From contig JAFLTB010000005.1 in the NCBI GenBank assembly GCA_022510605.1, positions 254 through 64,253 on the forward strand: DNA of 64,000 bases. Direction: 5' to 3'. Below, piece after piece: positions 8,698-32,554 of the stretch. This stretch comes from Lachnospiraceae bacterium (GTDB lineage Bacteria; Bacillota; Clostridia; Lachnospirales; Lachnospiraceae). Both the position numbers and the translations under genes were made by a program. The stretch's first letter is position 1. Each line of letters opens with the position of its first letter. The notes under the pieces are model-generated. The model ran no database searches. It was not told the origin of the DNA and saw nothing but the letters and a program-made list of their open reading frames with translations.

Positions 8698-8733
8698 GGA
8701 TTTGAGGTGCCATAGAGCGGGGAGAGGATGAAT

Positions 8734-12249: not shown

Positions 12250-12338
12250 AATTATAAATGCAAATTTCTTTTACTGCATATACCATATATTCATATACCT
12301 GAAAAGCATAATACAATATTTGATATAGGTATTTGATA

Positions 12339-12367
12339 TTTACATATGGGCGTGCTATATTGATAAT
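12339..12367 (+). promoter_or_regulatory. putative sigma-A promoter of the ADH-led gene run
   Basis: TTTACA (12339-12344), 17-bp spacer, GATAAT (12362-12367). Preceded by two copies of ATTTGATAT. Confidence 0.4.
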
Positions 12368-12401
12368 CGAAAGGAAAATATATATCAGGAGGAAAATGAT
12401 T

Positions 12402-13571: not shown

Positions 13572-13581
13572 GGAAGAGACT

Positions 13582-13863
13582 ATGAATATAAAGACAGGAA
13601 TGGAAGTGAAAAGACAGATGAATAGTGTTCAGGAACAGGAAAGAGCGATTCAGAATATGAAAGATGCCGGATGCAGTGAAGATACTATTAACCGTTTTTT
13701 GCTCTGCTATCAGGCAGAGGATGTAAAGGGAGAGTTAAAGGTTCTTTCCAGGCACAGGCAAGACTTATTGGATCAGATTCATAAAGGGCAGAAGAAAATT
13801 GACTGTCTGGATTATCTGGTATATCAGATTGAAAAAAATGCGAAAAAGGCTGAGAAGGTTTGA
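13582..13863 (+). CDS. small conserved hypothetical protein (93 aa, helical, Cys-containing)
   Basis: RBS AAGGAAGAG. Tightly packed between the ADH and the next gene (stop overlaps the TTG/ATG region of the next ORF). No recognisable domain. Confidence 0.5.
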   Translation: MNIKTGMEVKRQMNSVQEQERAIQNMKDAGCSEDTINRFLLCYQAEDVKGELKVLSRHRQDLLDQIHKGQKKIDCLDYLVYQIEKNAKKAEKV

Positions 13864-13877
13864 AAGGGAGGCAGCAT

Positions 13878-14789
13878 ATGGATTCAAAAAAGGAAATCAG
13901 ACAGGAAACCCTGACAGGTGAGAGAGCTCTGTTTCAGGGAAAAGGACTGCGGATTGTGGATAGTGTTTTTATGGATGGGGAATCGCCCCTCAAAGAGTGT
14001 CAGGACATTGAACTGTATGGCAGCCTGTTCCGCTGGAAATATCCGCTGTGGTATAGTAAGAATATTGTGGCAAAGGATTGTACCTGGTTTGAGATGGCAC
14101 GTGCCGGCGTATGGTATACGGATAACATCACGGTGGAGAATGCAGTGATTGAGGCTCCTAAGAATTTCCGCCGCTGTCATGGCGTGACATTAAAAAATGT
14201 TACCTTCCCCAATGCCGCCGAGACTCTGTGGAATTGTGAAAATGTCCGGATGGAAAAGGTAACAGCCACGGGGGATTACTTTGCTATGAACTGTCAGGAT
14301 ATGGAGATTCATGACTTTACGCTGACAGGGAATTATTCCTTTGACGGGGCTAAAAATGTAGTCATCCGGGGCGCTAAACTTTTGTCAAAGGATGCGTTCT
14401 GGAATACGGAAAATGTCACGGTATATGATTCTTTTATTTCCGGGGAATACCTGGGATGGAACGCAAAAAATCTGACGCTGATTAACTGCACCATTGAAAG
14501 CCTGCAGGGCATGTGTTATATTGACAATCTGGTGATGAAAAACTGCAAACTCATCCATACGACTCTGGCTTTTGAATACTCCTCTGTGGATGCGGAGATT
14601 ACAGGAAAGATAGACAGTGTGATGAATCCGGAAAGAGGAACGATACGGGCAGACGCCATTGATGAACTGATTCTGGAAAGAGATAAAGTGGACCCGGGAA
14701 AGACGAAAATTATTTGCGGGAGGCGAACGGATAAATGCAAGGAATTAAAATTTTTGACAAGTTATCAGCAGTGCTCATTGCAAGCCTGA
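13878..14789 (+). CDS. DUF3737-like right-handed beta-helix protein
   Basis: ATG 13878 lies 7 nt after AAGGGAGG. Repetitive (N/D)xx-hydrophobic-x-N/D turns run throughout. The N-terminus ERALFQGKGL...GESPLKE resembles DUF3737 proteins (from memory). The 3' end overlaps the next CDS by 55 nt. Confidence 0.6.
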   Translation: MDSKKEIRQETLTGERALFQGKGLRIVDSVFMDGESPLKECQDIELYGSLFRWKYPLWYSKNIVAKDCTWFEMARAGVWYTDNITVENAVIEAPKNFRRCHGVTLKNVTFPNAAETLWNCENVRMEKVTATGDYFAMNCQDMEIHDFTLTGNYSFDGAKNVVIRGAKLLSKDAFWNTENVTVYDSFISGEYLGWNAKNLTLINCTIESLQGMCYIDNLVMKNCKLIHTTLAFEYSSVDAEITGKIDSVMNPERGTIRADAIDELILERDKVDPGKTKIICGRRTDKCKELKFLTSYQQCSLQA

Positions 14790-15526
14790 TAATAGGCCTG
14801 GTACAAAACCCGGTATGGCAGACAGAGGCAAAGACCGGTGTCCAGGATGAGTGGTCTGTAACGGCCAGGCTGGATTCTAAAAAGGTAAATAGGAAAACAG
14901 TTACGATGAAGAAGGGTAGCAATAAAAAAATCAGCCTGACCATTGCACCGAAAAATTCAAGAGTGAAAAATTCAAAAATGAATACTTCATTTTTGAAAAC
15001 GAAGTATCATTCAAACAAAAAAAGCATCGTGTCAGTCACAAAAACAGGAGTGTTGAAGGCGAAAAAGAAGGGAACTGCCAAAATAACAATTACGGTAACA
15101 GGCAGTGAAAAATTAAAAAAGAAGGTATGGTTTAAGGTGAAGGTTATGAATAAGAGTAATTCTGACAATAAGACGGAAATTCCCGTTACCCTTACAGTGG
15201 GTGGGAAAACATTTTCAGCAAAATTTTATGACAATCCGGCGGCAAGGGAATTAGTCGAGAAAATGCCCATGACACTTTCCATGGAGGAACTGAATGGAAA
15301 TGAAAAGTATCATTATTTTGATACGAATTTCCCGACAAATGAGACTTCGCCAAAGCAGATACAGGCCGGAGATATTAAGTTGTATGGCTCGGGCTGTCTG
15401 GTTACATTTTACAAGAGCTTTACCACCTCCTATCGCTATACGTCGGTGGGATATGTGGAGGATGCCGCTGGCTTTGCCAGGGCCGTGGGCAGTGGAAATG
15501 TAAAAATCACGTTTCAGAAAGGGTAA
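14735..15526 (+). CDS. exported protein: signal/anchor + basic Big_2 (Ig-like) module + cyclophilin-like-fold domain
   Basis: N-terminal hydrophobic segment LSAVLIASLIIGLV. Lys-rich Big_2-like block (VSVTKTGVLKAKKKGTAKITITV). C-terminal VGGKTFSAKFYDNPAARELVEKMPMTL...GDIKLYGSGCLVTFY matches the cyclophilin-like (TM1367-type) pattern. Confidence 0.7.
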   Translation: MQGIKIFDKLSAVLIASLIIGLVQNPVWQTEAKTGVQDEWSVTARLDSKKVNRKTVTMKKGSNKKISLTIAPKNSRVKNSKMNTSFLKTKYHSNKKSIVSVTKTGVLKAKKKGTAKITITVTGSEKLKKKVWFKVKVMNKSNSDNKTEIPVTLTVGGKTFSAKFYDNPAARELVEKMPMTLSMEELNGNEKYHYFDTNFPTNETSPKQIQAGDIKLYGSGCLVTFYKSFTTSYRYTSVGYVEDAAGFARAVGSGNVKITFQKG

Positions 15527-15548
15527 AGGATACCCGGAAAGGCTGCAT

Positions 15549-16727
15549 ATGGGTTACGATTTTGATTCAAAAATAAACCGCAGGGAAAGTTATTCCCTGA
15601 AATGGGATGTAAAAGAAAATGAACTGCCTATGTGGGTGGCGGATATGGATTTTCAGACGGCACCGGAAATCCGGGAGGCGATTCAGAAGAGAGCAGAGCA
15701 TGGGATTTTTGGCTATACCATTCTTTCCGATGAATGGTATCAGGCATATCAGGACTGGTGGAAGCGCCATCACGACTTTGCCATGGAAAAGGACTGGCTC
15801 ATATTCTGTACGGGGGTCGTTCCGGCGATTTCCAGCGCCGTGAGGAAGCTGACGACGCCGGGAGAAAATGTACTGATACAGACTCCGGTATATAACATTT
15901 TCTTTAACTCTATTGTAAACAATGGAAGAAATGTGCTGGAGAGTCCGCTGACATATGACGGAAAGGAATATTCCATTGATTTTGACAAACTGGAAAAGGA
16001 TTTGTCAAATCCCCAGACGACCATGATGATTTTGTGTAACCCCCACAATCCAGTGGGGAAAATCTGGGACAAAGAGACATTGGCACGAATCGGTGAACTC
16101 TGTGCCAGGCATCATGTCATCGTATTGTCAGATGAGATACACTGTGATTTGACGGCACCGGGGCTGGAATATATACCATTTGCATCGGTTTCAGATACAT
16201 GCAGGGAAATCAGCGTGACGGCTATAGCGCCGACGAAAACATTTAATCTGGCAGGTTTGCAGACAGCGGCGGTGGCGGTGCCTAATCCGGTTCTCCGCCA
16301 TAAGATGTGGAGAGCCTTAAATACGGATGAAGTGGCAGAACCAAATGCCTTTGCCATAGATGCTGCAGTGGCCGCATTTACAAAGGGACGGCCCTGGCTG
16401 GAGGAATTGCGGAAGTATTTACAGAATAATAAACAGTATGTCCAGGAATATCTGGAAAAAGAACTGCCGCAGTTGTCTGTGGTATCCACAGACGCCACCT
16501 ATTTATTGTGGCTCGACTGCACCGGACTGACAGGAACATCTTCTGAGTTTACAAAGTTTCTCAGGAAAACCACAGGATTATATATCTCCGCTGGAAGTGC
16601 ATATGGCAGAGAAGGAGACGGCTTTGTGAGAATGAACATTGCCTGTCCCATGGAAGTTGTGAGGGATGGTATGGAACGATTGAAGAAAGGTGCGAAGGAG
16701 TATGAGAAAGAAACACAAAAAAGGTAA
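15549..16727 (+). CDS. patB: MalY/PatB-family PLP-dependent C-S lyase (cystathionine beta-lyase-like aminotransferase fold)
   Basis: N-terminus DFDSKINRRESYSLKWD, PLP-Lys context APTKTFNLAGL, 392 aa. Confidence 0.8.
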   Translation: MGYDFDSKINRRESYSLKWDVKENELPMWVADMDFQTAPEIREAIQKRAEHGIFGYTILSDEWYQAYQDWWKRHHDFAMEKDWLIFCTGVVPAISSAVRKLTTPGENVLIQTPVYNIFFNSIVNNGRNVLESPLTYDGKEYSIDFDKLEKDLSNPQTTMMILCNPHNPVGKIWDKETLARIGELCARHHVIVLSDEIHCDLTAPGLEYIPFASVSDTCREISVTAIAPTKTFNLAGLQTAAVAVPNPVLRHKMWRALNTDEVAEPNAFAIDAAVAAFTKGRPWLEELRKYLQNNKQYVQEYLEKELPQLSVVSTDATYLLWLDCTGLTGTSSEFTKFLRKTTGLYISAGSAYGREGDGFVRMNIACPMEVVRDGMERLKKGAKEYEKETQKR

Positions 16728-17832
16728 ACTTTTCAAAATAACCATAATTTTTGTGGGGCTTATTTTGTTTCTGCTGCTGGCAGCATTTTTATTTCTGAAG
16801 TTATGGCCAGCCTTTGGAGGAAGAGCATCGGAGGAGGACCGGCAGAATTATGCCAGCCGTGCAGAGAATTACCGTGACGGAAAATTTTATAACGATGGTG
16901 ATTTTCAGATTGTCCGGGAGACAGACCGAAGGGATGAAAACACTATGTCATCCAAAGGGACAATACCGGAAGGGGAACTGCCAGTTAAAACACCGTCCTA
17001 TGACCAGGAGTTATCGAAAGAGGAAGTTCGTGTTACCTGGTTTGGGCATTCGTCCATGCTCCTTCAGATGCACGGTATGAATATTCTGATTGATCCGGTA
17101 TTCAGCGAGCGGAGTTCACCGGTGTCTTTTGCAGGAAACAAACGATTTTCCCATCCACCGGTCAGTGCTGCGGATCTGCCTTCCATTGATTTGCTGGTAC
17201 TGTCCCATGACCATTACGATCATCTGGATTATAACGTGATGAAAGAGATAGATGGAAAAGTTGACCGTTATATCGTGCCTCTTGGTGTGGAGAATCATCT
17301 GGAGCGCTGGGGTGTGGCGGAAGAAAAAATCCAGAACATGGCGTGGTGGGAGGAAGTTACGATAAATGGTCTGACCATCGGATGTACACCGGCGAGACAT
17401 TATTCCGGAAGAAGTCTGGACGACCAGTTTGCAACACTCTGGGCCTCCTGGGCATTTCAGGACGAATATCATAAGATATTTGAGAGCGGAGACAGCGGCT
17501 ATGGAGAACAGTATCAAAAAATCCATGACAAGTATGGGGACTTTGACTTTGTATTGATTGATTGTGCCCAGTATGATGTAAACTGGCCCGAGGTACATAT
17601 GTTTCCTGAGGAGGCAGTTCAGGCAGTGCAGACCCTGGGAGCCAGGGCGGCAATGCCGATTCACTGGGGTGCCTTTAGTCTGGCAAACCATGGTTGGGAT
17701 GACTCGGTGGAGCGTTTTGTGGCAGCGGGAGAAACTGCCGGATTACAGGTTGCCACCCCTTACATTGGAGAGACTGTGAATCTGAATCATCTTGAAAACA
17801 GTATGGAGCGCTGGTGGAAAGACATTTTATAA
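16702..17832 (+). CDS. membrane-anchored MBL-fold metallo-hydrolase
   Basis: N-terminal TM segment (ITIIFVGLILFLLLAAFLFL). Metallo-beta-lactamase motif LVLSHDHYDHLD. Start uncertain (GTG 16690 or ATG 16702). Overlaps the patB 3' end. Confidence 0.75.
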   Translation: MRKKHKKGKLFKITIIFVGLILFLLLAAFLFLKLWPAFGGRASEEDRQNYASRAENYRDGKFYNDGDFQIVRETDRRDENTMSSKGTIPEGELPVKTPSYDQELSKEEVRVTWFGHSSMLLQMHGMNILIDPVFSERSSPVSFAGNKRFSHPPVSAADLPSIDLLVLSHDHYDHLDYNVMKEIDGKVDRYIVPLGVENHLERWGVAEEKIQNMAWWEEVTINGLTIGCTPARHYSGRSLDDQFATLWASWAFQDEYHKIFESGDSGYGEQYQKIHDKYGDFDFVLIDCAQYDVNWPEVHMFPEEAVQAVQTLGARAAMPIHWGAFSLANHGWDDSVERFVAAGETAGLQVATPYIGETVNLNHLENSMERWWKDIL

Positions 17833-17894: not shown

Positions 17895-18476
17895 ATGAAG
17901 AAGAAATGTTTATTATGGATGAATGTAGTGTTGGTGTTTGCATTGATTGCTGGGTTGGCATTTCCAGTAGTAAATGTTAATGCTGCGGGCAAATCAAAAA
18001 AGAAAAAAGTTTTAGTAGTCTATTTTTCAGCAACCGGAACCACAAAGAGTGCAGCCAAAAAGATTAATAAGGCGACAGGGGGGAAATTGCATGAAATTAA
18101 AGCAGCTGTTCCGTATACCAAAGCAGATTTGAATTACGACAATGATGACTGCCGGGCAAACAAAGAGCAGAAAGATGGCAGTGTCAGACCGGAGATTAAA
18201 GGAAAGGTGAAGAATATCCGCAAATATGACGTGATTTTTGTTGGATATCCCATCTGGTGGAGCAAAGAGCCTATGATTATCCGGACTTTTTTGGAATCCT
18301 ATAATTTGAAAGGAAAAATTCTTGTACCATTCTGCACCAGTGGTGGAAGTGGAATCTCCGGAAGCAAGAAAGGAGTAAAAGCGGCAGCCAAGGGTGCGAA
18401 AGTCCGGAAAGGGAAAGATTTGACGGATATGCCATATAAAAGTGTGAAAAAGTGGGCAGAGAAAAAGACAAAGTGA
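17895..18476 (+). CDS. flavodoxin-like protein with N-terminal signal peptide
   Basis: MKKKCLLWMNVVLVFALIAGLAFPVVNVNA|AG signal-like N-terminus, then the FMN phosphate-loop VVYFSATGTTK and GYPIWW...FCTSGGSG. Alternative start at ATG 17877. Confidence 0.72.
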   Translation: MKKKCLLWMNVVLVFALIAGLAFPVVNVNAAGKSKKKKVLVVYFSATGTTKSAAKKINKATGGKLHEIKAAVPYTKADLNYDNDDCRANKEQKDGSVRPEIKGKVKNIRKYDVIFVGYPIWWSKEPMIIRTFLESYNLKGKILVPFCTSGGSGISGSKKGVKAAAKGAKVRKGKDLTDMPYKSVKKWAEKKTK

Positions 18477-18542
18477 CTAAAAATGTAACTTGGTATTAGT
18501 AATATACACTATTTGCACAGTCGAAGAAAGGAGCGAAAGAGT

Positions 18543-19844
18543 ATGAGAAAGAGATATTTAATTAGGGAAGTGATTTCAGCATTTCTGATAGTAAGCCTGA
18601 TAATCAGTACTGCATTTACAGAAAAGCTGCTTATGATTTCGACAGCAAGTAGTTCAGTGAAAGGGATTCGCTTAAAAATAAATAGAAAGAATGTAACTAA
18701 AAAAACCTTTTCTATGAAACAGGGGAAAAAGCAGAAGTTAAAAGTAATCGTACCGAGACAGAAGAAGATAAAGATTGCTTTTCGTTCTAACAAAAGAAAC
18801 ATTGTATCTGTTTCAAAAGCGGGAACGCTTACGGCAAAAAGGGTAGGAAGTGCCAGAATTACCGTCACGGCAAAAGTAAAAAAGAAGAAGTATAAAGGAT
18901 GGGTAAAAATCAAGGTGATTTCTTCAGAAAGAAAAAAATCAGAAGGAGTTAAATCGGATACGAGGCCGGGGCAGACACCAAGTCCTTTACCGGAAAATGC
19001 ACCGACACCTTCATCAACACCTTCTGCCTCTCCTCCGGCAGTATCATCTAGTCCATCACCAGAGATGCCTACCCGTGTGATTGAAAAGGGTACAAAAATC
19101 AACATGCATTTTGGTGATACTATCATTCCGGGGATTCTTAATGAAAGTGATACAGCAAAAGCCCTGATTGAAAAGCTGCCATACACAGTTCATATGAGCA
19201 GTTATTCCCATGACTTCTGTGGTGTGTTGCCGTATGAACTTCCGTACAATGAGGATGAACTACATTATGGCTGGCTAAACGGAGATATTGACTATGCCAT
19301 TGGCGTACCTTATTTTACGATTTTACATTCAGATGAAGAAATTTCCGGACAGTATGGTCCACGGGTAAATATCGGTGTTATTACCTGTGAACTTGCAAAA
19401 ATCAGGAACTTAAGTGGAGACTATGATGTTTTAATTGAATTAGTAGAAGATGGCTCTGATTCTGAAAGTACAGGAAAAACAGATGATATAAAAAATATGA
19501 AAATGAATGTACAAATTGGAGATAAATCTTTTACCGCAACACTAGAAGATAATGTTGCGACTCGTGAGCTGGTGGAAATTATGAGAGAAGCACCAATTTC
19601 CATTGATATGAATGATTATTCTGGATTTGAAAAGGTCGGTCCTCTTGGAAGAAGTTTGACGACTGATAATCAGCAGACTACTACTACTGCAGGGGATATC
19701 GTCCTTTATAGTGGAAATCAGATTGTCATGTTTTATGGTTCAAACTCATGGAGTTATACCAGGATCGGAAAGATTGACGATCTGTCCGGTTGGGAAGATG
19801 CACTGGGGAGTGGCAGCATAACGGCAGTGCTTTCTCTTAAATAA
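18543..19844 (+). CDS. exported protein: anchor + basic Big_2 + Pro/Ser linker + two different cyclophilin-like-fold domains
   Basis: ATG 18543 lies 9 nt after GAAAGGAG. Hydrophobic VISAFLIVSLIISTAF. Lys-rich Big_2 block. Linker PSPLPENAPTPSSTPSASPPAVSSSPSP. Domain 1 is KINMHFGDTIIPGILNESDTAKALIEKLPYTV. Domain 2 is VQIGDKSFTATLEDNVATRELVEIM...GDIVLYSGNQIVMFYG. Confidence 0.75.
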   Translation: MRKRYLIREVISAFLIVSLIISTAFTEKLLMISTASSSVKGIRLKINRKNVTKKTFSMKQGKKQKLKVIVPRQKKIKIAFRSNKRNIVSVSKAGTLTAKRVGSARITVTAKVKKKKYKGWVKIKVISSERKKSEGVKSDTRPGQTPSPLPENAPTPSSTPSASPPAVSSSPSPEMPTRVIEKGTKINMHFGDTIIPGILNESDTAKALIEKLPYTVHMSSYSHDFCGVLPYELPYNEDELHYGWLNGDIDYAIGVPYFTILHSDEEISGQYGPRVNIGVITCELAKIRNLSGDYDVLIELVEDGSDSESTGKTDDIKNMKMNVQIGDKSFTATLEDNVATRELVEIMREAPISIDMNDYSGFEKVGPLGRSLTTDNQQTTTTAGDIVLYSGNQIVMFYGSNSWSYTRIGKIDDLSGWEDALGSGSITAVLSLK

Positions 19845-19868
19845 ATTGCAAATAAGGAGAAAAAGAGT

Positions 19869-20669
19869 ATGAAAAAAAGAATTTTAATCAGGAAAGTAAT
19901 TTCTGTATTTTTAATTGCAAGCTTGATAACCGGTACTGTTTTCATGGGAAATTTGTCCGTGATACCGGCAGCAGGCAGTACAAAGAGCAAAGTCTGTCTG
20001 AAAATCAACAACCGAAATGTAACAAAAAAACATTTTTCCGTGAAAGAGGGAAAAAAGAAGCAGATAAAGGTAACCGTACCCAAACAAAAGAAGGCAAAGA
20101 TTACGTTTCGCTCTGAGGAAAAAAGCATTGTATCTGTTTCAAAAACTGGAACGTTCACTGCAAAGAGAGAGGGAATTGCCAAAATTACTGCTATTGCAAA
20201 AGTAAAGGGGAAGACGTGTAAGGGATGGGTGAATATCCGTGTGATTCCCTCGAAAAAGAAAAATGCGGTAGCTGCGGGAATGCCCGCCCGTGTAATTAAG
20301 AACGGGACAAAAATTAATATGCATTTTGGTGACACTGTGATTCCAGGCGTTCTCAACAATAGTGTTACGGCAAAGGCGTTGATCAAAAAACTGCCATATA
20401 CAGTGCATGTGGAACGCTATTCCGAAGATTTCTGTGGCATAATGTCGGATGAACTTCCGTACAAAAAAAATGCGATGCATTATGGTTGGCTGGACGGGGA
20501 TATCGACTATGCTGTTGGTACATCTTATTTTACGATTCTTCATTCAGGGGAAGAAGATTCTGCGGAGTATGGTCCACGGGTAAATATCGGCGTTATTACA
20601 TGTAAACTCTCCAAAATTAGGAGTTTAAAGGGAGACTATGATGTTCTGATTGAATTGGCAGAAAGGTAA
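19869..20669 (+). CDS. exported protein: signal + basic Big_2 + one cyclophilin-like-fold domain (tandem paralog of the previous gene)
   Basis: MKKRILIRKVISVFLIASLITGTVF...PAAGS signal. Collinear similarity to 18543..19844 at DNA and protein level (for example INMHFGDTVIPGVLNNSVTAKALIKKLPYTV, GPRVNIGVITCKLSKIRSLKGDYDVLIEL). Confidence 0.75.
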   Translation: MKKRILIRKVISVFLIASLITGTVFMGNLSVIPAAGSTKSKVCLKINNRNVTKKHFSVKEGKKKQIKVTVPKQKKAKITFRSEEKSIVSVSKTGTFTAKREGIAKITAIAKVKGKTCKGWVNIRVIPSKKKNAVAAGMPARVIKNGTKINMHFGDTVIPGVLNNSVTAKALIKKLPYTVHVERYSEDFCGIMSDELPYKKNAMHYGWLDGDIDYAVGTSYFTILHSGEEDSAEYGPRVNIGVITCKLSKIRSLKGDYDVLIELAER

Positions 20670-20675
20670 GATGTT

Positions 20676-21578
20676 ATGCTGGAAACTATCCAGGGTGAGT
20701 TAGTTTATATCTGGTACTATTTCGATATTCAGTTCCGGCAGATTTTTGTATACTGGATTTTGGGAATGGTGATCGGTTCTCTTGTATCGGTGTTTGCCAA
20801 AGATAGAATACATAATTTGTTTGCCTCCATGCAGGGGACGAGGCTCGGAACAGTGGGAATTTTGTTGGCCAGTGCATTGGGGATTCTGTCCCCACTGTGC
20901 ATGTACGGGACGATACCCATTGCAGCATCCTTTTCCAGACAGGGTATGAGGGAGGACTGGCTGGCGGCCTTTATGATGAGCAGTGTTTTGTTAAATCCAC
21001 AGCTCTTAATGTACAGCACGGCGCTGGGGACGACCGCCCTGTTAATCCGGTTATTGTCCTGTTATGTGTGCGGAGTAGTGGCGGGCATACTGGTGAATTT
21101 TCGTTTTTCGGATAAACCTTTCTTCAATTTCGACGGATTTTCACCGGGTGAAAGTCATGATACCGACCCGAATCCTTTCCTGCGGTTTCTAAAAAATCTG
21201 GGAAGGAATATAAGGGCCACGGGCCCCTATTTCCTGATTGGTATTCTGCTTTCTGCTCTGTTCCAGCGCTATGTTCCCAGTGAACAGTTTGCATCCCTTT
21301 TTGGGGTCCACAAAGGATTTGGCGTTCTGTTGGCGGCTACCATCGGAGTCCCGTTGTATGCCTGTGGAGGGGGAACGATTCCTCTGCTGCAGGAATGGCT
21401 GATGTCGGGAATGAGCATGGGAAGTGCGGCGGCGTTCATGATTACAGGACCTGCTACCAAAATCACAAATCTTGGAGCCTTAAAAATTGTGCTGGGAATG
21501 AAGCATTTTGTAATTTATATTGTCTATGTCATGGTGTTTTCCTTTGTGACAGGATTTTTGATCAATCTAATCCTGTAG
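20676..21578 (+). CDS. DUF318/ArsP-type permease
   Basis: Polytopic membrane protein with two internal repeats, each carrying a Cys motif (GILSPLCMYGTIPIA and GVPLYACGGGTIPLL). Starts 6 nt after the preceding stop. Confidence 0.75.
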   Translation: MLETIQGELVYIWYYFDIQFRQIFVYWILGMVIGSLVSVFAKDRIHNLFASMQGTRLGTVGILLASALGILSPLCMYGTIPIAASFSRQGMREDWLAAFMMSSVLLNPQLLMYSTALGTTALLIRLLSCYVCGVVAGILVNFRFSDKPFFNFDGFSPGESHDTDPNPFLRFLKNLGRNIRATGPYFLIGILLSALFQRYVPSEQFASLFGVHKGFGVLLAATIGVPLYACGGGTIPLLQEWLMSGMSMGSAAAFMITGPATKITNLGALKIVLGMKHFVIYIVYVMVFSFVTGFLINLIL

Positions 21579-21630
21579 TGTTAGGAATCGTGTAGTGGAT
21601 ACTGCACAAATACCAGAATGGAGGCTGTAA

Positions 21631-22893
21631 ATGAACGGGAATATTTCAGAAAAATATGAGATGGGAAGCTGTACTATGCGTCGGTATCTGTTGATGCTTG
21701 TTTTTGTCATAGCAGCTTTTTGTATTTCTCTTTTTGCTTTGCGGTGGATAAAAATAAAATCGACGGGAAGTAAGATGAAACTGAATAAAAAGAATGTGAC
21801 ATTGGCAGTTGGGAAATCCCAGAAATTGAAAGTGAAAAATCTGCCGAAAAATGCCACTGTTTCATGGGTGTCCTCTAAAAAGTCCGTTGCCCCGGTCAGT
21901 AAAAAGGGCATGGTCAGGGCAAAGAAAGCGGGAAAAGCAACAATACGGTGCAAGGTTACTTACGGCAGTAAAAATAAAACCTTAAAATGCAAAGTGAATG
22001 TAATCAGAAAGAAGAAAAATAAGAAATCTGCGGTATTCATGACAACGGATATCAGTCCGAAAGGACTGATGGCAGTATATGAGGCCTTGAACTGGGACAC
22101 AAAGGGAAAAACGGCGGTCAAGGTCTCGACGGGAGAACCGCCTTCCAGCAATTATCTGGATCCAAATTTGATAAAAGATCTGGTGCAGTCTGTAGACGGG
22201 ACTATTGTGGAATGTAATACCGCCTATGGGGGTGACCGCTCTGGCACGGCTATGCACAGGCAGGTAGCAAAGGACCATGGTTTTACAAAGATTGCTAAAG
22301 TGGATATCATGGATTCTTCCGGGAATATGACACTGCCAGTAAACGGGGGGACTCACCTGAAAAGGAATTATGTGGGAAAGAACTTTGAAAACTATGATTC
22401 ATTCCTTGTTTTATCCCATTTTAAGGGACATGCGATGGCTGGCTTTGGTGGTGCCATAAAGAATACTTCTATTGGAATTGCCTCATCCAAGGGAAAGAGC
22501 TATATCCATTCCGGCGGCACGTCAACCAGTGGATTCGGCGGGGAACAGGATGCTTTTCTGGAGTCTATGTCAGAAGCAGCGAAAGCGGTTTCTGACAGTC
22601 TGGACAATGGTAAAAAGATTGTCTATATCAACGTGATGAATAATCTGAGCGTGGACTGTGACTGCGACGGATATCCCGCAGAGCCGAAAATGAAGGATGT
22701 CGGGATACTGGCATCCGCCGATCCGGTGGCATTGGATCAGGCCTGTGTGGATCTGGTATACAAACAGAAAAAGGGGGATGGAGCCTCACTGGTAAAAAGA
22801 ATTGAGTCCCGAAATGGTCTTCTCACACTGAAACACGCAGAAGAGATTGGTCTTGGTAGTCGTAATTATGAGATAAAAAGTGTAGATAACTAA
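21631..22893 (+). CDS. anchor + basic Big_2 module + DUF362 domain protein
   Basis: GGAGG sits 6 nt upstream. TM segment YLLMLVFVIAAFCISLFAL. Big_2 block (VAPVSKKGMVRAKKAGKATIRCKV). DUF362-like body (VKVSTGEPPSSNYL, HFKGHAMAGFGGAIKN, VDCDCDGYP, DPVALDQACVDLV). Confidence 0.7.
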   Translation: MNGNISEKYEMGSCTMRRYLLMLVFVIAAFCISLFALRWIKIKSTGSKMKLNKKNVTLAVGKSQKLKVKNLPKNATVSWVSSKKSVAPVSKKGMVRAKKAGKATIRCKVTYGSKNKTLKCKVNVIRKKKNKKSAVFMTTDISPKGLMAVYEALNWDTKGKTAVKVSTGEPPSSNYLDPNLIKDLVQSVDGTIVECNTAYGGDRSGTAMHRQVAKDHGFTKIAKVDIMDSSGNMTLPVNGGTHLKRNYVGKNFENYDSFLVLSHFKGHAMAGFGGAIKNTSIGIASSKGKSYIHSGGTSTSGFGGEQDAFLESMSEAAKAVSDSLDNGKKIVYINVMNNLSVDCDCDGYPAEPKMKDVGILASADPVALDQACVDLVYKQKKGDGASLVKRIESRNGLLTLKHAEEIGLGSRNYEIKSVDN

Positions 22894-22970
22894 GCAGACA
22901 TAAAAGCAATGTGAAAGTATTTCATAGTTTTGCTGGACAGATATAAGAGAGGAAAACGAGGAATCATTAT

Positions 22971-24113
22971 ATGAAAAACAGGAAAATCAGTTTGGCTGTA
23001 GCCATATTATCAGGGATTTCCCTGCTAGTGGCAGGATGTGGGAAAACGGAACAGTCATACACAGACAGAGAGAGTGAGATCGTGGAGGCAGATGAGGAAA
23101 GTGGGACTTCCAAGTCAGAGGACATGGATACAATAATTCCTACTTCGGAGATTGCTTCCCTGGAGGATGGGTTAGCTGATGTTCAGTATTCCGGTTATTA
23201 TGGTTTTTCTGAGTTTTTGAATCAGGGTGGAGCATCTTCGGACTCAGAGGTCATGGAATTTCTGACGGAGCATTTGTTTTCGGGAATGTCCGGTCTTATG
23301 TATTCCGGTGATGTATTTGGATGCAGTACCATTTCTGTTAAAAGTTCAGAAGGAAAGTATCTGTTTGGAAGAAACTTCGACTGGAATCAATGTGATGCAT
23401 TAGTTGTCAGTTATGAGCCGGAGGGACATGATTCCGGGGAATATGCGTCCCTGTCTACTGTAAACATGGACTTTATTGCCGCCGGTGCAGGAATGGATGT
23501 AGAGCAGTTTCCAGATCGGATGAAAACCATTGCAGCGTTGTATGCTCCCTTAGATGGAATGAATGAAAAGGGACTTTGTGTTTCAGTTAACATGATTCAG
23601 GATTCTGCCACTATTGAACAGAATACGGACAAGCCGGATATTACGACGACGACAGCCGTCCGTCTGCTGCTGAATCAGGCGGCGGATGTGGAAGAGGCAT
23701 TAAGTTTATTAAAACAATATGATTTGCATGCCTCCATGGGAATGATGATTCATTTTGCACTGGCAGATGCAGGTGGGCGTTCTGTCGTTGTGGAGTATAT
23801 AGGGAATGAGATGGTGGTGACAGATACACCTGTGGTGACAAATTTTTATCTGGCACCGGGAGAAAAGAATGGAATCGGAACAGAGCAGTCCCACACCCGG
23901 TATGAGATTTTGACAGAGCGATTGAAGGAAAAAGAAACAATGGATATGCAGGATGTAAGAGATGCACTGGACAGTGTCAGCAAAGACAATTTTGGGGAAT
24001 TTGAATCCACGGAGTGGAGTATTGTTTATAATCAGGACAGCGGGGTGGTCCAGTATTACCACCGGGAAAATTATGAAAAGGCATATTCCTTTCAGGTTCC
24101 GGCAAAAGGCTAG
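22971..24113 (+). CDS. lipoprotein, C45 / Ntn-hydrolase family (acyl-CoA:6-APA acyltransferase / linear amide hydrolase-like)
   Basis: Lipobox LLVAGC. Putative autoprocessing nucleophile in FGCSTISV followed by FGRNFDW, and later NEKGLCVSVN. Confidence 0.65.
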   Translation: MKNRKISLAVAILSGISLLVAGCGKTEQSYTDRESEIVEADEESGTSKSEDMDTIIPTSEIASLEDGLADVQYSGYYGFSEFLNQGGASSDSEVMEFLTEHLFSGMSGLMYSGDVFGCSTISVKSSEGKYLFGRNFDWNQCDALVVSYEPEGHDSGEYASLSTVNMDFIAAGAGMDVEQFPDRMKTIAALYAPLDGMNEKGLCVSVNMIQDSATIEQNTDKPDITTTTAVRLLLNQAADVEEALSLLKQYDLHASMGMMIHFALADAGGRSVVVEYIGNEMVVTDTPVVTNFYLAPGEKNGIGTEQSHTRYEILTERLKEKETMDMQDVRDALDSVSKDNFGEFESTEWSIVYNQDSGVVQYYHRENYEKAYSFQVPAKG

Positions 24114-24119: not shown

Positions 24120-24153
24120 GGCGCCAATTTGAAACAGGGTTCAAATTGGCGCC
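24120..24153. terminator. bidirectional stem-loop between convergent genes
   Basis: Perfect 14-bp stem, GGCGCCAATTTGAA / TTCAAATTGGCGCC, with a 6-nt loop. Confidence 0.7.
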
Positions 24154-24162: not shown

Positions 24163-25038
24163 CTATAGTAAGCTTTGAAATTCTTTTAAAAATTTTTCTG
24201 CAGCCTTTGGAAATATCTGATATTTTTTCCAGATCAGGTTCATTCCGACATTCAGCTCCGGTTCGCAGGGAATGAAACAAAGATTGCTGTCTCCAGTGGT
24301 ATTGATGATTTTATCCAGGGCAAGGGCGTAGCCAAGCCCCTCGTCTACCATCAGAGAGGCGTTAAAAAGCAGGTTGTAAGTAGCAGTTACATTTAATTCA
24401 TCAATTTTTTTACCAAGCCATGTAGTCAGAAGATCACCGTCACGGGTATTGCGGTTAATAATGAGAGGCTGATTCCACAGGTTTTCCGGGTAGATGCTTT
24501 TCTTTTCTGCCAATGGACTGTCTTTCCGCATTAAAATACCATAGGCGTCTTTTACCGGAAATTCCAGATATTCATACTTGGAAGTATCTACCGGACCAAA
24601 TAGGAGTCCAAAATCAATCAGCCCTTTATCGAGACTTTCCAGAACATCTTTGGTATCGCCGCTGGAAATGTGATAGTGTATGTCGGGATAGGAGTGCTGT
24701 AACTGCCTTGCCGCTTTTGCTAACAGATGAACGGCATCCGTTTCTCCTGCACCGATATATACGTCCCCGGCAACGGTGTCGTCGGAAACCGTAATTTCCT
24801 GTTCTGTCTTTTGTACCAGATCAAGAATTTCCTCGGCACGTTTACGTAAAATCATTCCTTCTTCCGTCAAAGTGATTTTTCTGTTTCCCCGAATCATAAG
24901 CTGTTTTCCAAGTTCATCTTCCATGTCCTTTAATTGTCTGGAAAGGGTGGGCTGGGAAAGATGCAGTGACTCTGCGGCACCGGAAATACTCTGTTCTCTT
25001 GTAACGGCAAGAAAATATTGAAGGACTCTCAGTTCCAT
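24163..25038 (-). CDS. LysR-family transcriptional regulator
   Basis: Start trimmed to MELRVLQYFLAV (AGGAGGTGAGG upstream on the - strand). HTH segment SISGAAESLHLSQPTLSRQLKDMEDELG. Divergent from the 25213 operon. Confidence 0.9.
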   Translation of the reverse strand: MELRVLQYFLAVTREQSISGAAESLHLSQPTLSRQLKDMEDELGKQLMIRGNRKITLTEEGMILRKRAEEILDLVQKTEQEITVSDDTVAGDVYIGAGETDAVHLLAKAARQLQHSYPDIHYHISSGDTKDVLESLDKGLIDFGLLFGPVDTSKYEYLEFPVKDAYGILMRKDSPLAEKKSIYPENLWNQPLIINRNTRDGDLLTTWLGKKIDELNVTATYNLLFNASLMVDEGLGYALALDKIINTTGDSNLCFIPCEPELNVGMNLIWKKYQIFPKAAEKFLKEFQSLL

Positions 25039-25212: not shown

Positions 25213-26571
25213 ATGCTGGGACGTTTGCATTTACTCTGGGATTTGTATCAGTTAAAAAGAAATGAGTATAAAACCAGAGAACAAATTCGCACCCTGCAGG
25301 ATAAAAAGCTTCGCAAACTTCTTTATTATGCCTATGACCATTCCACATATTACAAAAGAACCTTTGAACAGGCTGGTATTACCAGAGAGCAGATAAGGAA
25401 GCTCCCTATATCAGCGTTTCCGACAATAGATAAGAAAATCCTGATGGAGCATTTTGATGAGATTGTGACGAGGGAAGATATTATGCAGGAGGAACTCCGG
25501 ATGTTTGATGAAGGAAGTTCCACAGAGCAAAAGGAGTTCCGTGGGAAATATCATGTAGTACATTCTTCCGGCAGCACGGGAATCCCAAGATATTTTGTAT
25601 ATGATACGCCTGCATGGAATCAGATGCTGCTCGGGATTATTCGTGGAGCGCTGTGGGACATGACAATGCCCGGAATATTGAAATTACTGTCAGGAAGACC
25701 AAGGATTTTATATGTTGCGGCCACCGACGGACGATACGGTGGGGCGATGGCAGTGGGGGATGGGATTGATGGTGTAGGGGCAGAGCAGATGTTTCTGGAT
25801 ATTAAAACTCCGCTTTCCCAGTGGATTTACAGTGTCAAAGAATTTCAGCCGGATATGATTATTGGTTATCCCTCTGCTATTAAAATTCTGGGTGAATTAA
25901 TAGAACGCAGTGAAGTTTCCGTAAATGTGCGCCGTGTGATTTCCTGTGGCGAGCCACTTTCACCGGGACTTAGGAATTATCTGGAACAGGTTTTCAGGAC
26001 AGTTGTTGTAAATTTCTATGGTGCCAGTGAATCTCTGGTACTGGGCGTGGAAACCAATCCGGCGGAAGGGATGTACCTGTTTGATGATATGAATTATATT
26101 GAAGTTGAGAATGGGAAGATGTACCTGACCTCTCTGTATAATTTTGCCCAGCCTCTGATTCGATACCGCATTTCTGACCAATTGACATTAATGCAATCAG
26201 ATTCTATGAGCAGATGTCCTTTTTTGCAGGCAAATATTCTTCTGAGCAGGAATGAAGATGTCCTGTGGTTTGAGGATCCTGAGGGGAAAAGAGATTTTCT
26301 ACACCCCCTTGCGGTAGAGGGCTTATGTGTGGAGGGGCTTTTGGATTATCAGTTCCGACAGACAGATAAGGATGCCTTTGAAATGTTGGCGGAGGTTTCC
26401 ACAAGTGAGAGAGAGGCTCATGTTCGAGGAGAGATTTTGAAACAGATGGAGCGGATTCTCCATGAAAAGAATTTGGATAATGTACGCTTTTTTGTGAAAT
26501 TTGTAGAAGAAATTCTGCCGGACTCCCGGACGGGAAAAAAGCAGCTGATAGTACAATATAATGAAGGATAG
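25213..26571 (+). CDS. PaaK / coenzyme F390 synthetase-like adenylate-forming enzyme
   Basis: N-terminus LRKLLYYAYDHSTYYKRTFEQAGI, AMP-binding core VVHSSGSTGIPRYF, GEPLSP, FYGASES, C-terminal GKKQL. Confidence 0.75.
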   Translation: MLGRLHLLWDLYQLKRNEYKTREQIRTLQDKKLRKLLYYAYDHSTYYKRTFEQAGITREQIRKLPISAFPTIDKKILMEHFDEIVTREDIMQEELRMFDEGSSTEQKEFRGKYHVVHSSGSTGIPRYFVYDTPAWNQMLLGIIRGALWDMTMPGILKLLSGRPRILYVAATDGRYGGAMAVGDGIDGVGAEQMFLDIKTPLSQWIYSVKEFQPDMIIGYPSAIKILGELIERSEVSVNVRRVISCGEPLSPGLRNYLEQVFRTVVVNFYGASESLVLGVETNPAEGMYLFDDMNYIEVENGKMYLTSLYNFAQPLIRYRISDQLTLMQSDSMSRCPFLQANILLSRNEDVLWFEDPEGKRDFLHPLAVEGLCVEGLLDYQFRQTDKDAFEMLAEVSTSEREAHVRGEILKQMERILHEKNLDNVRFFVKFVEEILPDSRTGKKQLIVQYNEG

Positions 26572-26596
26572 TGTAGGCTTCGGAATGGAGGTTAAA

Positions 26597-27217
26597 ATGA
26601 TTGCGGGGTATTTTCTCCGGGGGCTCTTGATTGGTTTGGTGTTCGGAGTTCCAGCAGGGGCCATTGGTGCCTTAACCATCCAGCGCACGTTGGAAAAAGG
26701 CTTCTTTGCAGGACTGGTGACAGGAGCAGGTTCATCGGCAGCGGATTTACTCTATTCCTGTATCAGTGTATTTGGGATTACGATTGTCTCGGATTTTTTA
26801 ACAGCACATCAGGCTGTAATCCGGATCATTGGCGGATGTCTGATACTGATTTTTGGTATTGCTATTTTACGAAAAAAGGAAGGAGCCTCTGTACAAAAGG
26901 ATACCAGGGGAACACCTGTAGTTTACTTTTTGTCCGCCTTTACAGCGGCGATTTTGAATCCTGCTACGATTCTATCCTTTGTGGTTGCTTTTACTGCCTT
27001 TGGAATCAGCGGGAATTTGGAAATCCCGCAGGGGCTTGCCTTAATTGCAGGTATTTTAACAGGAACGCTGTGCTGGTGGTCGGCCCTTAGCGGTTTAGTT
27101 GCGTATTTCCGCAAAAGGGTTACAGATAATATCTATAAATGGCTGAACCGTATCTTAGGAGGTCTTATGATACTGTTTAGTATCATTATGACAATTCAGG
27201 GAATCAGGCAGATGTAA
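26597..27217 (+). CDS. LysE/RhtB-family exporter
   Basis: GGAGG sits 5 nt upstream of ATG 26597. About 6 TM helices. N-terminus GLLIGLVFGVPAGAIGALT is typical of LysE-type translocators. Confidence 0.75.
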   Translation: MIAGYFLRGLLIGLVFGVPAGAIGALTIQRTLEKGFFAGLVTGAGSSAADLLYSCISVFGITIVSDFLTAHQAVIRIIGGCLILIFGIAILRKKEGASVQKDTRGTPVVYFLSAFTAAILNPATILSFVVAFTAFGISGNLEIPQGLALIAGILTGTLCWWSALSGLVAYFRKRVTDNIYKWLNRILGGLMILFSIIMTIQGIRQM

Positions 27218-27267
27218 TGGAGTGTCTGCCATCCGAAAGGGAAAGACAATATGAAAAAGGAGTCAGC

Positions 27268-28011
27268 ATGAAAGAGGCAATTTTATCAGGAAAAAGTATA
27301 ACAAAGACCTTTGGTGAAACTATCATTCTGCATGGGATTGATATAGAACTGTATGCCGGAGATTTTACAGTAATCATGGGTTCCTCCGGTTCAGGAAAAT
27401 CCACTTTGCTTTATGCTTTGAGTGGAATGGAGCGTCCTGACAGCGGTCAGTTGTTTTTCAGAAAGCAGGATATTATAAATGCTTCAGAAAAGGAGTTGAC
27501 GAAACTTCGGGCGGAGGATTTCGGCTTTGTGTTCCAGCAAACCCATCTGATTAGTAATCTGACGCTGGATGAGAATATACGGATGGCGGGGCTTATCGGG
27601 CCTTTGTCGGAAAAGGAAGTTAAAATACGCACCGACGCCCTTATTAAGCAAATGAATCTTGAGGGTGCAAGGGACAGACTGCCATCGCAGACATCCGGTG
27701 GTGAGGCACAGCGGGCCGCTGTTGCCAGGGCGGTAATTAACAGGCCGGTAATACTTTTTGCTGACGAGCCAACGGGAGCTTTGAATAAGGCGAACTCAGA
27801 AGAAGTTCTGAATCTTTTGTCCTCACTCCATGAGGAAGGTCAGTCGGTTCTGCTTGTTACCCACGACAGGGAAGCAGCTCTGCGGGGAAATCGTATTCTG
27901 TATCTGGAGGATGGCGCTATTATTGGAGAATTGGAACTGCCAATCTATACAGGTAAAGACAGGCCGCGGGAAGAAAAACTAACTGCCTGGCTGGAAGGAT
28001 TTGAGTGGTAA
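27268..28011 (+). CDS. ABC transporter ATP-binding protein (paralog of 7909..8697)
   Basis: Start trimmed to MKEAILSGKS (AAGGAG upstream). Walker A GSSGSGKST, signature TSGGEAQR, Walker B ILFADEPTGAL. C-terminal extension ends in EW. Confidence 0.9.
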   Translation: MKEAILSGKSITKTFGETIILHGIDIELYAGDFTVIMGSSGSGKSTLLYALSGMERPDSGQLFFRKQDIINASEKELTKLRAEDFGFVFQQTHLISNLTLDENIRMAGLIGPLSEKEVKIRTDALIKQMNLEGARDRLPSQTSGGEAQRAAVARAVINRPVILFADEPTGALNKANSEEVLNLLSSLHEEGQSVLLVTHDREAALRGNRILYLEDGAIIGELELPIYTGKDRPREEKLTAWLEGFEW

Positions 28012-28038
28012 CGTTTACGCTTTGGAATGGAGATTCGT

Positions 28039-30360: not shown

Positions 30361-30387
30361 AAAATAATAATAAAAGGAGAGATGAAC

Positions 30388-31008
30388 ATGAAAAAAATTA
30401 TCACATGGAGTATGATTGTACTGCTTATTATCAGCATGGTTGCCCTTGCGGGATGCAGTTCACAGACGGAGAATCCGGGAACGCCACCGGCAGATGTTAT
30501 TAACCCGGATAGGGAAGGAGAAGCAGGTATTACAGATGAAAACTCACAAAACGGGAACAGTACTTCTGCCTATGAAGGGGATGTTCTGGAAAATGCCGTA
30601 TCGGTTCGGATTGGCAGAGACGGAGAGAAAGAGTGGGCCGTCAATATGTATAACAATGACGCCGCTGTAACGATGTTGGATTATCTGTCCGATTCCGAAT
30701 TGCTGTTTCCCACCTATACCTATGAGGAGGAACAGGGATTTGTTGCACAAGACGTAAGAGGGGAGTATACTAGAGAAGATGAGACAACCATTACGGATGT
30801 CAAAGCGGGAGAATTGTATCTGTTTAGTGGAGGGCAGCTCCGTTTCTATTTCAAGGATATGGCAGGGGCAGATATTACAGCAACTCCGGTGGGGTATTAT
30901 GCAGATACAAAAGGGTTGACAGAGGCAGTGCAGGAAGCATACGAGTCAAACAAGGGTGATACCTGGGGCGTAGAGGTTTATTTCCAGATTAAGAAAAATA
31001 TTAAATAA
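30388..31008 (+). CDS. lipoprotein with cyclophilin-like-fold domain
   Basis: Lipobox LAGCSS. C-terminal EWAVNMYNNDAAVTMLDYL...AGELYLFSGGQLRFYF matches the same cyclophilin-like pattern as 14735 and 18543. Lies 21-27 nt after the permease stop. Confidence 0.7.
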   Translation: MKKIITWSMIVLLIISMVALAGCSSQTENPGTPPADVINPDREGEAGITDENSQNGNSTSAYEGDVLENAVSVRIGRDGEKEWAVNMYNNDAAVTMLDYLSDSELLFPTYTYEEEQGFVAQDVRGEYTREDETTITDVKAGELYLFSGGQLRFYFKDMAGADITATPVGYYADTKGLTEAVQEAYESNKGDTWGVEVYFQIKKNIK

Positions 31009-31030
31009 GGAATATAGGAGGAAAATGAAT

Positions 31031-31360: not shown

Positions 31361-31408
31361 GGTAGAGGCAGTGAAGGAGAAGCATAGTTAGATGAATGGA
31401 GGTTCAAT

Positions 31409-32530: not shown

Positions 32531-32554
32531 AATGGATGTCAGGAGGAATACAAA

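Follow-up and report, generated by a model that had tools for sequence, protein, structure and literature searches.

Extracytosolic flavoprotein systems of Gram-positive gut bacteria have been recognised recently and, to our knowledge, no terminal function is known for the Flavodoxin_4/DUF4405 class. In the systems described so far, ApbE flavinylates some of the Flavodoxin_4 proteins, a subclass with an insertion that separates beta1 from alpha1 and takes up the flavin (mSystems 2024, PMC11334425); DUF4405 is a membrane cytochrome with haem b, and the genes of these systems cluster with an energy-coupling factor (ECF) transporter for flavin (PMC11334425). Here we analysed a stretch of 64,000 nucleotides (nt) from a Lachnospiraceae bacterium (contig JAFLTB010000005.1, positions 254 to 64,253 of the forward strand, assembly GCA_022510605.1), hereafter called the window, in which a run of six genes at 17895-24113 codes for a Flavodoxin_4 protein, cyclophilin-like proteins, a permease, a DUF362 protein and a C45 lipoprotein. 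Like the ApbE/DUF4405/Flavodoxin_4 clusters of Huang, Meheust, Light et al. (PMC11334425), the run includes a Firmicutes Flavodoxin_4 protein with an export signal; unlike them, it has no apbE, DUF4405, ECF transporter or flavinylation insert. We read the run, with a probability of roughly 0.55, as a redox module at the cell surface, of the Flavodoxin_4 class and with DUF362 as its likely catalytic end-point, situated in a LysR-associated 'surface chemistry' island; the gene set probably carries out an extracellular redox reaction. While exported flavodoxins have been described before, the connection among DUF362, the permease and the cyclophilin-like proteins, and the LarA-like nature of the exported enzyme, appear to be undescribed. 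DUF362, ArsP_1, Cyclophil_like2 and DUF3737 are not mentioned in PMC11334425, and literature searches on DUF362 and on Cyclophil_like2 (PF18050) in such a context returned nothing relevant beyond PMC11334425 and PMC11770544.

The six genes, taken from the list of open reading frames (ORFs) and the Pfam and NCBIfam scans, are as follows.

17895-18476, + strand: Flavodoxin_4 gene
18543-19844, + strand: Big_2 protein with two Cyclophil_like2 stretches
19869-20669, + strand: Big_2 protein with one Cyclophil_like2 domain, paralogue of the preceding product
20676-21578, + strand: permease of the ArsP_1/DUF318 family
21631-22893, + strand: Big_2 and DUF362 protein, membrane-anchored
22971-24113, + strand: C45/CBAH-type Ntn-hydrolase lipoprotein

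An earlier note on this DNA had described six consecutive genes on one strand; all six ORFs lie on the plus strand, and their coordinates and the gaps of 66, 24, 6, 52 and 77 nt between them were reproduced. Its domain assignments were upheld for all six products by Pfam and NCBIfam scans, and the motifs that it quoted, VYFSATGTT, SPLC75MYGTIP, PLYAC230GGGTIP and the lipobox LVAGC23, were all found.

A check of gene neighbourhoods, which the note had proposed, indicated that these families co-localise far above chance and fuse into single polypeptides. In a survey anchored on Cyclophil_like2, with one genome per GTDB species, relatives of the cyclophilin-like protein were found in at least 596 species genomes, mostly of gut or rumen Clostridia and also of Treponema, Coriobacteriaceae, Succinatimonas, Victivallales and Succiniclasticum. 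Carriers that can be cultivated are Eubacterium plexicaudatum ASF492 (L089), Lachnospiraceae bacterium 28-4 (L054), Eubacterium sp. 14-2 (L055), Flavonifractor sp. An82 (L063) and Catenisphaera adipataccumulans DSM 25799 (L073). The 80 loci kept from this survey contained LysR (46), DUF3737 (28), Flavodoxin_4 (27), LysE (16), C45 (12), AMP ligase (11) and DUF362 (10); in the 62 loci flanked by 1.5 kb or more on each side, Flavodoxin_4 was present in 18, DUF3737 in 22 and LysE in 13. The permease served as a second, independent anchor in metagenome contigs. DUF362 lay within 1.5 kb of it and on the same strand in 34/36 loci whose flanks both reached 1.5 kb or more, and the 27 loci in which each flank was 5 kb or longer carried DUF362 (26), Flavodoxin_4 within 5 kb (18), DUF4405 (9) and ApbE (3). 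Further neighbour families, named from one representative per cluster of unassigned ORFs and not by a scan with hidden Markov models, were aldo-keto reductases (AKRs), FMN-reductase-like, flavin-reductase-like, MATE, SDR and alpha/beta-hydrolase proteins, MerR and two-component regulators.

Comparison of these loci revealed three recurrent modules: (a) LysR next to one or more cyclophilin-like proteins, an exported Flavodoxin_4 and an iron-containing alcohol dehydrogenase (Fe-ADH); (b) an exported DUF362 next to the ArsP_1 permease; and (c) LysR next to C45, AMP ligase, ABC, FtsX, a lipoprotein called Cyc208, DUF3737, LysE and Cyclophil_like2, to which AKR, Fe-ADH and PatB may be added. The order of module (c) from C45 to the cyclophilin-like gene was kept in eight loci (L043, L050, L062, L067, L078, L083, L084 and L091). 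The six genes of the window are module (a), module (b) and the first gene of module (c). Closely related metagenome-assembled genomes (MAGs) had the same gene set in a different order, and the exact order of the six genes was found only in the source contig (L001) and, as far as it reaches, in L002, a short contig that breaks off within the fifth gene.

As judged from natural fusions, DUF362 and flavodoxin partner physically with the cyclophilin-like barrels. A Monoglobus protein of 717 amino acids (aa) (L038:5591-7744) consists of a leader, DUF362, Flavodoxin_4 and Cyclophil_like2, its flavodoxin being free of the insert like that of the window; L040 and L049 code for single chains of leader, DUF362 and Cyclophil_like2, and P0218 joins a lipobox, S-layer-homology (SLH) domains, DUF362 and Cyclophil_like2. 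Lipoprotein fusions carry Flavodoxin_4 and cyclophilin-like domains behind one lipobox (P0009, P0013 and P0017), and in the 676-aa lipoproteins P0018-P0026 an alpha/beta-hydrolase is joined to cyclophilin-like domains in the same manner. In a set of 68 diverse proteins representing this DUF362 subfamily, fusions to Flavodoxin_4 were the commonest (9), followed by GNAT (8), Cyclophil_like2 (5) and SLH (3), and a fusion to a ferredoxin domain was found in none of the 68. Other fusion partners of DUF362 were TM1506/DUF1893, clostripain and transglutaminase-like domains (P0241-P0334), and several of the fusion proteins of this subfamily are surface proteins of 1000-2900 aa. The alpha/beta-hydrolase, of the dienelactone-hydrolase/S9 type, separates the N-type cyclophilin-like domain from the C-type one (P0018-P0026; L010:4633-5370), at the position occupied by Flavodoxin_4 in P0013.

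Topology was assessed by a crude hydropathy and lipobox test together with family-wide evidence, the leader test being indicative only, with false positives on CMD proteins (internal helix). Among non-redundant neighbours in the 177 fetched loci, an N-terminal hydrophobic leader was present in 81/103 Flavodoxin_4 proteins (59 with a lipobox), 68/74 DUF362 proteins (49 with a lipobox), 11/12 C45 proteins and 4/4 Cyc208-type proteins, against 0/85 of the cytoplasmic control neighbours (AMP ligase, PatB, DUF3737, Fe-ADH and AKR). Leaders were likewise found in 114/120 of the closest Big_2-DUF362 homologues, many with a VNA/K or VQA/ cleavage site (slash marking the cut), and each of the 13 homologues aligned for the tandem cyclophilin-like protein begins with a signal peptide or lipobox. 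Fusions to S-layer-homology, fn3 and Cu_amine_oxidN1 domains also occur and point, like the Tat signal and lipobox of a Coriobacteriaceae flavodoxin described below, to an extracytoplasmic location. The leaders on the window proteins and these counts agree with the note in placing the soluble products outside the cytoplasm; its premise that flavodoxin and DUF362 are normally cytoplasmic is untrue for these subfamilies, since most cluster members have leaders and extracytosolic Flavodoxin_4 proteins have been shown experimentally (PMC11334425). The Lys-rich segment that follows the DUF362 anchor was considered as a violation of the positive-inside rule, and this was dismissed because homologues have the same Lys-rich Big_2 domain after cleavable signal peptides.

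The DUF362 domain of the window (Pfam match with E 3e-48; residues are numbered from nt 22033) gave an AlphaFold2 (AF2) model with pLDDT 83.4 and pTM 0.87. A Foldseek search of this model against the PDB showed that the top 16 matches all belonged to the LarA family, with probability 0.99-1.0, E 2e-5 to 1.6e-3 and TM(query) 0.42-0.51, in agreement with a two-lobed LarA-type fold, and Pfam clan CL0471 holds both DUF362 and LarA_N (PMC11770544). At the level of sequence, the Lar_N profile (PF09861) stayed below its cut-off for the window domain (14.7 vs 23.3 bits, E 0.018), while a homologue, P0165, reached 24.2 bits. PDB sequence searches with DUF362 and with P0165 gave no match, and the DUF362 profile matched Big_2 domains only, so that the link to LarA rests on the fold search and the sub-threshold Pfam match. 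The sole segment similar to Lar_N is weak and ungapped, joining domain residues 113-160 to profile positions 146-193, and H133, K143 and H159 fall inside it with the +10/+16 spacing of His174, Lys184 and His200 in LarA1, where His174 is catalytic, Lys184 tethers the cofactor and His200 is a nickel ligand (PMC11770544). In 91 DUF362 representatives at 40-72% identity, H133 was conserved in 87, K143 in 86 and H159 in 88; K30, E35, R69, H75, H129, K131 and D208-C-D-C211 were conserved as well. The triad H133/K143/H159 is suggestive of a LarA-type cofactor site and is a candidate for one. DUF362 has the fold, the clan and the spacing of the candidate His/Lys/His triad in common with the LarA nickel-pincer racemase, but differs from it in its smaller domain, in a Lar_N score below cut-off, in the additional conserved D-C-D-C, in being exported and in being fused to flavodoxin.

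A four-cysteine Fe-S site in DUF362 was also considered and rejected, as C61 was present in 62/91 and C238 in 67/91 representatives and no Fer4 fusions occur in the subfamily. No larB, larC or larE was seen near the DUF362 gene of the window, and no gene of the DUF111/LarC type among the loci that were annotated; an AIRC gene of the window (2776-3288) codes for 170 aa and is PurE-sized. In a mouse-gut genome (L094:6172-14176) a Big_2-DUF362 and permease pair directly follows the gene for pyruvate:ferredoxin oxidoreductase, and is itself followed by two 40-aa ORFs and a second DUF362 protein of 457 aa.

The flavodoxin (193 aa) matched Flavodoxin_4 (PF12682) with 168.5 bits (cut-off 24, E 1e-49) over profile positions 1-154 of 155. 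Its public gene call begins at an upstream GTG and not at the ATG at 17895, and an exact look-up of the 193-aa sequence accordingly gave no match; we favour the short start because GGAGG lies 11 nt upstream of this ATG. The N-terminus then reads as a predicted Sec signal, with a KKK n-region, a 20-residue h-region and a cleavage site between VNA and AG. The protein matched PDB entries 4ICI, 3KLB and 4J8P at E 4e-43 to 3e-36, and its segments VYFSATGTT (the conserved FMN-phosphate loop), GYPIWW and PFCTSGGSG aligned without gaps to 4ICI and 3KLB, of which 3KLB binds FMN non-covalently (PMC11334425). Since these alignments are ungapped across the beta1-alpha1 loop, the window flavodoxin does not carry the ApbE flavinylation insert there, and a regular-expression scan for the flavinylation motif D-x-x-[ST]-x-A-[ST] found it in no protein of the window; the flavodoxin is predicted to be of the non-covalent FMN type. 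In a Coriobacteriaceae MAG (L024:10359-11099) a Flavodoxin_4 protein adjoining a cyclophilin-like gene starts with a twin-arginine signal (SRRAFLRAAA) and a lipobox behind it, and would therefore be exported folded with its cofactor.

The permease matched ArsP_1 with 135.9 bits (cut-off 32.3, E 2e-39) and fell below the cut-offs of both NCBIfam equivalogs (SO_0444, 103.8 vs 300; SaoE, 69.1 vs 325). It consists of two homologous halves (internal repeat with E 4e-8) in which the invariant C75 aligns with the invariant C230, and C129-x-x-C132, also invariant, lies in a predicted transmembrane helix. Alignment across families showed 65-87% identity, and a PDB sequence search with the permease profile gave no match. 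With ArsP, the MAs(III) efflux protein of Campylobacter, with the SO_0444 Cu/Zn efflux protein and with SaoE it has in common the Pfam family ArsP_1/DUF318 and a two-repeat architecture with a cysteine-containing P-x-C...G-T-I-P motif in each half. It is unlike them in lacking an ars operon context, in its sub-cut-off equivalog scores, in having DUF362 as partner and in the extra invariant CxxC in its N-terminal half. The combination of a CxxC with one cysteine per repeat is reminiscent of thiol-disulfide conduits such as CcdA and DsbD.

The product of 18543-19844 comprises a leader, a Lys-rich Big_2 domain, a Pro/Ser linker, an N-type cyclophilin-like domain and a C-type Cyclophil_like2 domain, and that of 19869-20669 a leader, Big_2 and the N-type domain only, with 57% identity between the two over 302 aa; scores against Cyclophil_like2 (PF18050) were 139.3 and 50.2 bits (cut-off 22.7). 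The N-type domain has invariant SHDFCG and GWLNGDID segments and a later cysteine. SHDFCG is present in 14/14 aligned relatives of the longer protein, while the shorter paralogue has SEDFCG (residue ~186) and may be a non-functional or diverged copy. A PDB sequence search with the cyclophilin-like protein gave no match. In a Foldseek search the AF2 model matched TM1367 (1ZX8), 3KOP and AF2241 (2NNZ) with probability 1.0 each, and also the Pictet-Spenglerases KslB and McbB; the N-type domain was modelled at lower confidence (pLDDT 46-84). The window domains share the cyclophilin-like beta-barrel fold with these structures at 8-18% sequence identity and also match Pfam Cyclophil_like2. They differ from them in being exported, tethered by Big_2 and arranged as an N-type and a C-type domain in tandem, and in belonging to a family that is here fused to flavodoxin, DUF362 or alpha/beta-hydrolase domains.

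Related loci joined the window to the published flavoprotein systems. L096 and L097, found through a DUF362 protein with 71% identity, contained LysR, a fusion of Flavodoxin_4 and Cyclophil_like2 that carries the motif DAGTSAS, two further genes for exported Flavodoxin_4 proteins, an AKR-Fer4 protein and DUF4405, together with DUF3737, DUF362, an ECF S-component, ArsP_1 and ApbE; apbE and DUF4405 were both present in L096, L098, L136 and L144. Because L096 and L097 unite these genes, the DUF362 and permease genes of the window belong to the gene pool of ApbE/DUF4405/Flavodoxin_4 systems. The view of the earlier note that no pathway explains the combination is thus too strong, since ApbE, the DUF4405 cytochrome b and an ECF flavin transporter all occur in the related loci.

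The six-gene run is the middle part of a LysR-linked island of ~22 kb, from about 12.3 to 34.2 kb. The run has no upstream boundary: the genes for DUF3737, a Big_2-Cyclophil_like2 protein, PatB and an MBL hydrolase come before it, likewise on the plus strand, and either overlap or are separated by at most 62 nt, and no convincing promoter or terminator was found between 13.8 and 24.1 kb. The families of the upstream part recur around Cyclophil_like2 genes in other genomes. The further features of the island are listed below, those before the six genes forming its upstream part and those from 25213 onwards its downstream part.

Within 12333-17832, + strand: Fe-ADH, a 93-aa ORF and DUF3737
14735-15526, + strand: Big_2-Cyclophil_like2 protein
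15549-16727, + strand: PatB C-S lyase
16702-17832, + strand: MBL hydrolase with an N-in membrane anchor
24120-24153, no strand: hairpin of 14 bp, rich in G+C, where the C45 and LysR genes converge, likely a bidirectional terminator
24163-25038, - strand: LysR-family regulator, convergent with the C45 gene and divergent from the downstream operon
Within 25213-34161, + strand: PaaK/F390-synthetase-like AMP ligase, and LysE
27217-30360, + strand: ABC ATPase and 777-aa FtsX permease
~30382-31008, + strand: 208-aa Cyclophil_like2-like lipoprotein (LAGC lipobox)
Within 25213-34161, + strand: CMD protein, and AKR with a 4Fe-4S domain
33040-34161, + strand: 373-aa Big_2 protein with a signal peptide

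A strong terminator had been reported after the last gene of the run. The hairpin at 24120-24153 is present, but its strength on the plus strand was not borne out, as the U-tract there is weak (the letters that follow are GTCGTTATAC); the T-run lies on the minus-strand side and suits the convergent LysR gene. As called, DUF3737 and the next Big_2-Cyclophil_like2 ORF overlap by 55 nt (14735-14789), which is due either to translational coupling or to a start annotated too early. The Cyclophil_like2 score of the 208-aa lipoprotein (22.7 bits, E 1e-4) equals the cut-off; homologues of this protein (Cyc208) come directly after the ABC-FtsX pair in many genomes, and this suggests that the Cyc208-type lipoprotein is a surface partner of the ABC-FtsX exporter. 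The 373-aa protein has one Big_2 domain and a C-terminal region of ~250 residues without a Pfam match. Upstream of the island, positions 5556-11094 code for a LytTR response regulator, a GHKL histidine kinase and a further ABC/FtsX pair, with an FtsX permease of 788 aa, which is a second copy of the type at 27217-30360, and the remainder of the window consists of housekeeping genes (gltBD, glnA, carAB, pnp and ftsK).

The treatment of the six genes as a single functional unit could not be maintained, given the extension of the run upstream and the conservation of its last gene with the adjacent C45/AMP-ligase/ABC module. The C45 gene adjoins LysR and the AMP ligase in related genomes, and by conservation its product belongs to this neighbouring module. 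The protein matched the CBAH and AAT families of Pfam and C45_proenzyme (100.7 bits vs cut-off 85). C23 is the lipobox cysteine, and C118, which aligns with residues 1-2 of the bile-salt hydrolase chains 2BJF and 2RLC, is the predicted nucleophile that would be exposed after removal of the predicted propeptide. The CBAH and AAT families, C45_proenzyme and the aligned nucleophile cysteine are in common with bile-salt hydrolases and the C45 acyl-CoA:6-APA acyltransferase among the Ntn-hydrolases. Unlike bile-salt hydrolases, the window protein is a lipoprotein with a pro/linker region of ~95 residues, and its similarity to them reached E 1e-4 only, with a bile-salt hydrolase equivalog score of 39 against a cut-off of 350.

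For the working of the module we infer the following scheme. The exported FMN flavodoxin would act as electron carrier, with electrons flowing from it to a membrane- or wall-tethered DUF362 of the LarA fold as the likely catalytic end-point. The permease may export a soft metal or a cofactor for the metallation of the Sec-exported DUF362, or may move a substrate or product of DUF362. The Big_2-tethered cyclophilin-like barrels would be accessory modules that bind small molecules and are possibly catalytic, and the C45 lipoprotein would be a surface enzyme of the neighbouring module with AMP ligase, MacB-like ABC exporter, LysE and DUF3737. A reactive small molecule would be transformed or detoxified before or while it crosses the envelope; a carbonyl or quinone type is proposed because the neighbours include AKRs, Fe-ADH, SDR, FMN reductases, cupin, CMD, alpha/beta-hydrolases, MATE and LysR/MerR regulators.

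Several observations weigh against this scheme. Neither in the window nor in the contig from 37 to 116 kb was apbE, DUF4405, an ECF flavin transporter or another transmembrane electron conduit found, so that this locus offers no evident path by which FMN and electrons would reach the exported flavodoxin, the chief weakness of the scheme; the flavodoxin of the window is itself free of the flavinylation insert. DUF362 may need no external electrons, because LarA enzymes are redox-neutral racemases. Cyclophil_like2 lies next to the permease in only 1-2 of 80 loci, and the full combination seen in the window is therefore uncommon; many DUF362-permease pairs have no flavodoxin within 10 kb (e.g. 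L126, L127, L140 and L162). The substrate class is drawn from the neighbours alone, and the topology from the crude hydropathy/lipobox test.

An extracytoplasmic flavin or redox role, one half of the hypothesis in the earlier note, is nevertheless the reading best supported by export signals, co-localisation and fusions, whereas its other half, capture and import, found no specific support. In the latter, the barrels would bind an external molecule, flavodoxin and DUF362 would modify it and the permease would import it for PatB, AKR, Fe-ADH and DUF3737. Surface domains of a binding type do adjoin a permease and cytoplasmic enzymes of a catabolic type, and the cyclophilin-like folds of KslB and McbB bind small aromatic and carbonyl substrates; but those ArsP_1 relatives that have been characterised work in efflux (ArsP, PMC6205960; the models SO_0444 and SaoE), the island has no obvious uptake system beside three systems of exporter type (LysE and the MacB-like ABC, with MATE in relatives), and the barrels rarely adjoin the permease, all of which makes import unlikely. 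If instead the permease moves arsenicals or soft metals outwards and works with flavoproteins in resistance, by analogy with ArsP and ArsH, its ArsP_1 match, its conserved cysteines and the partial matches that it gave to the models for SO_0444 (Cu/Zn efflux) and SaoE would be accounted for. However, both equivalog scores quoted above are far too low (103.8 vs 300 and 69.1 vs 325), none of ArsR, ArsB/Acr3, ArsC, ArsM and ArsH is annotated among the Pfam-scanned window genes or the Pfam-annotated related loci, the invariant partner is DUF362 and not an ars gene, and the regulator is of the LysR family. Arsenic resistance was rejected for want of an ars context and of an equivalog-level match, and resistance of this kind in general is highly improbable.

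It is also conceivable, although doubtful, that DUF362 acts on its own outside the cytoplasm as an isomerase of the LarA kind, a racemase or epimerase, with the permease as its sole obligatory partner, the flavodoxin and cyclophilin-like genes being merely co-regulated and part of another surface system. The LarA fold with its conserved His-Lys-His triad, the redox-neutral chemistry of LarA (PMC11770544) and the flavodoxin-free DUF362-permease pairs in several 20-kb loci are in line with such an enzyme. It is harder to reconcile with Flavodoxin_4 as the commonest fusion partner of DUF362 (9/68 representatives), with the three-domain fusion and with the presence of Flavodoxin_4 within 5 kb in 18/27 of the well-flanked loci. 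That unrelated surface proteins were brought together by chance in a variable genomic island would agree with the shuffled gene order among related MAGs and with the restriction of the exact six-gene order to the source contig (L001) and the truncated L002; as these families turn up again at independent anchors in 160 loci and also as gene fusions, we regard chance as extremely unlikely.

A more specific version of the redox module, which we put forward as speculative and rather improbable, is that exported DUF362 proteins form a class of extracytoplasmic oxidoreductases. A LarA-type metal cofactor, tethered by Lys and ligated by His, of the nickel-pincer type or another metal-thiolate, would serve as hydride acceptor and the flavodoxin would re-oxidise or re-reduce it, so that a racemase scaffold would become a net redox enzyme; the permease would export the cofactor or metal for the maturation of the Sec-exported DUF362, or relay reducing equivalents by thiol-disulfide exchange in the manner of CcdA/DsbD. 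If true, this would supply the missing terminal enzyme for orphan ApbE/DUF4405/Flavodoxin_4 systems. Apart from this speculative version, the LarA-like DUF362 may be the first case of LarA-type chemistry outside the cytoplasm. The analysis ties three unstudied families, DUF362, the cysteine-rich ArsP_1 permease and Cyclophil_like2, to extracytosolic flavoproteins across hundreds of gut Clostridia, and gives testable candidates for a widespread cell-surface reaction in the gut which may detoxify or transform small molecules of the diet or the host.

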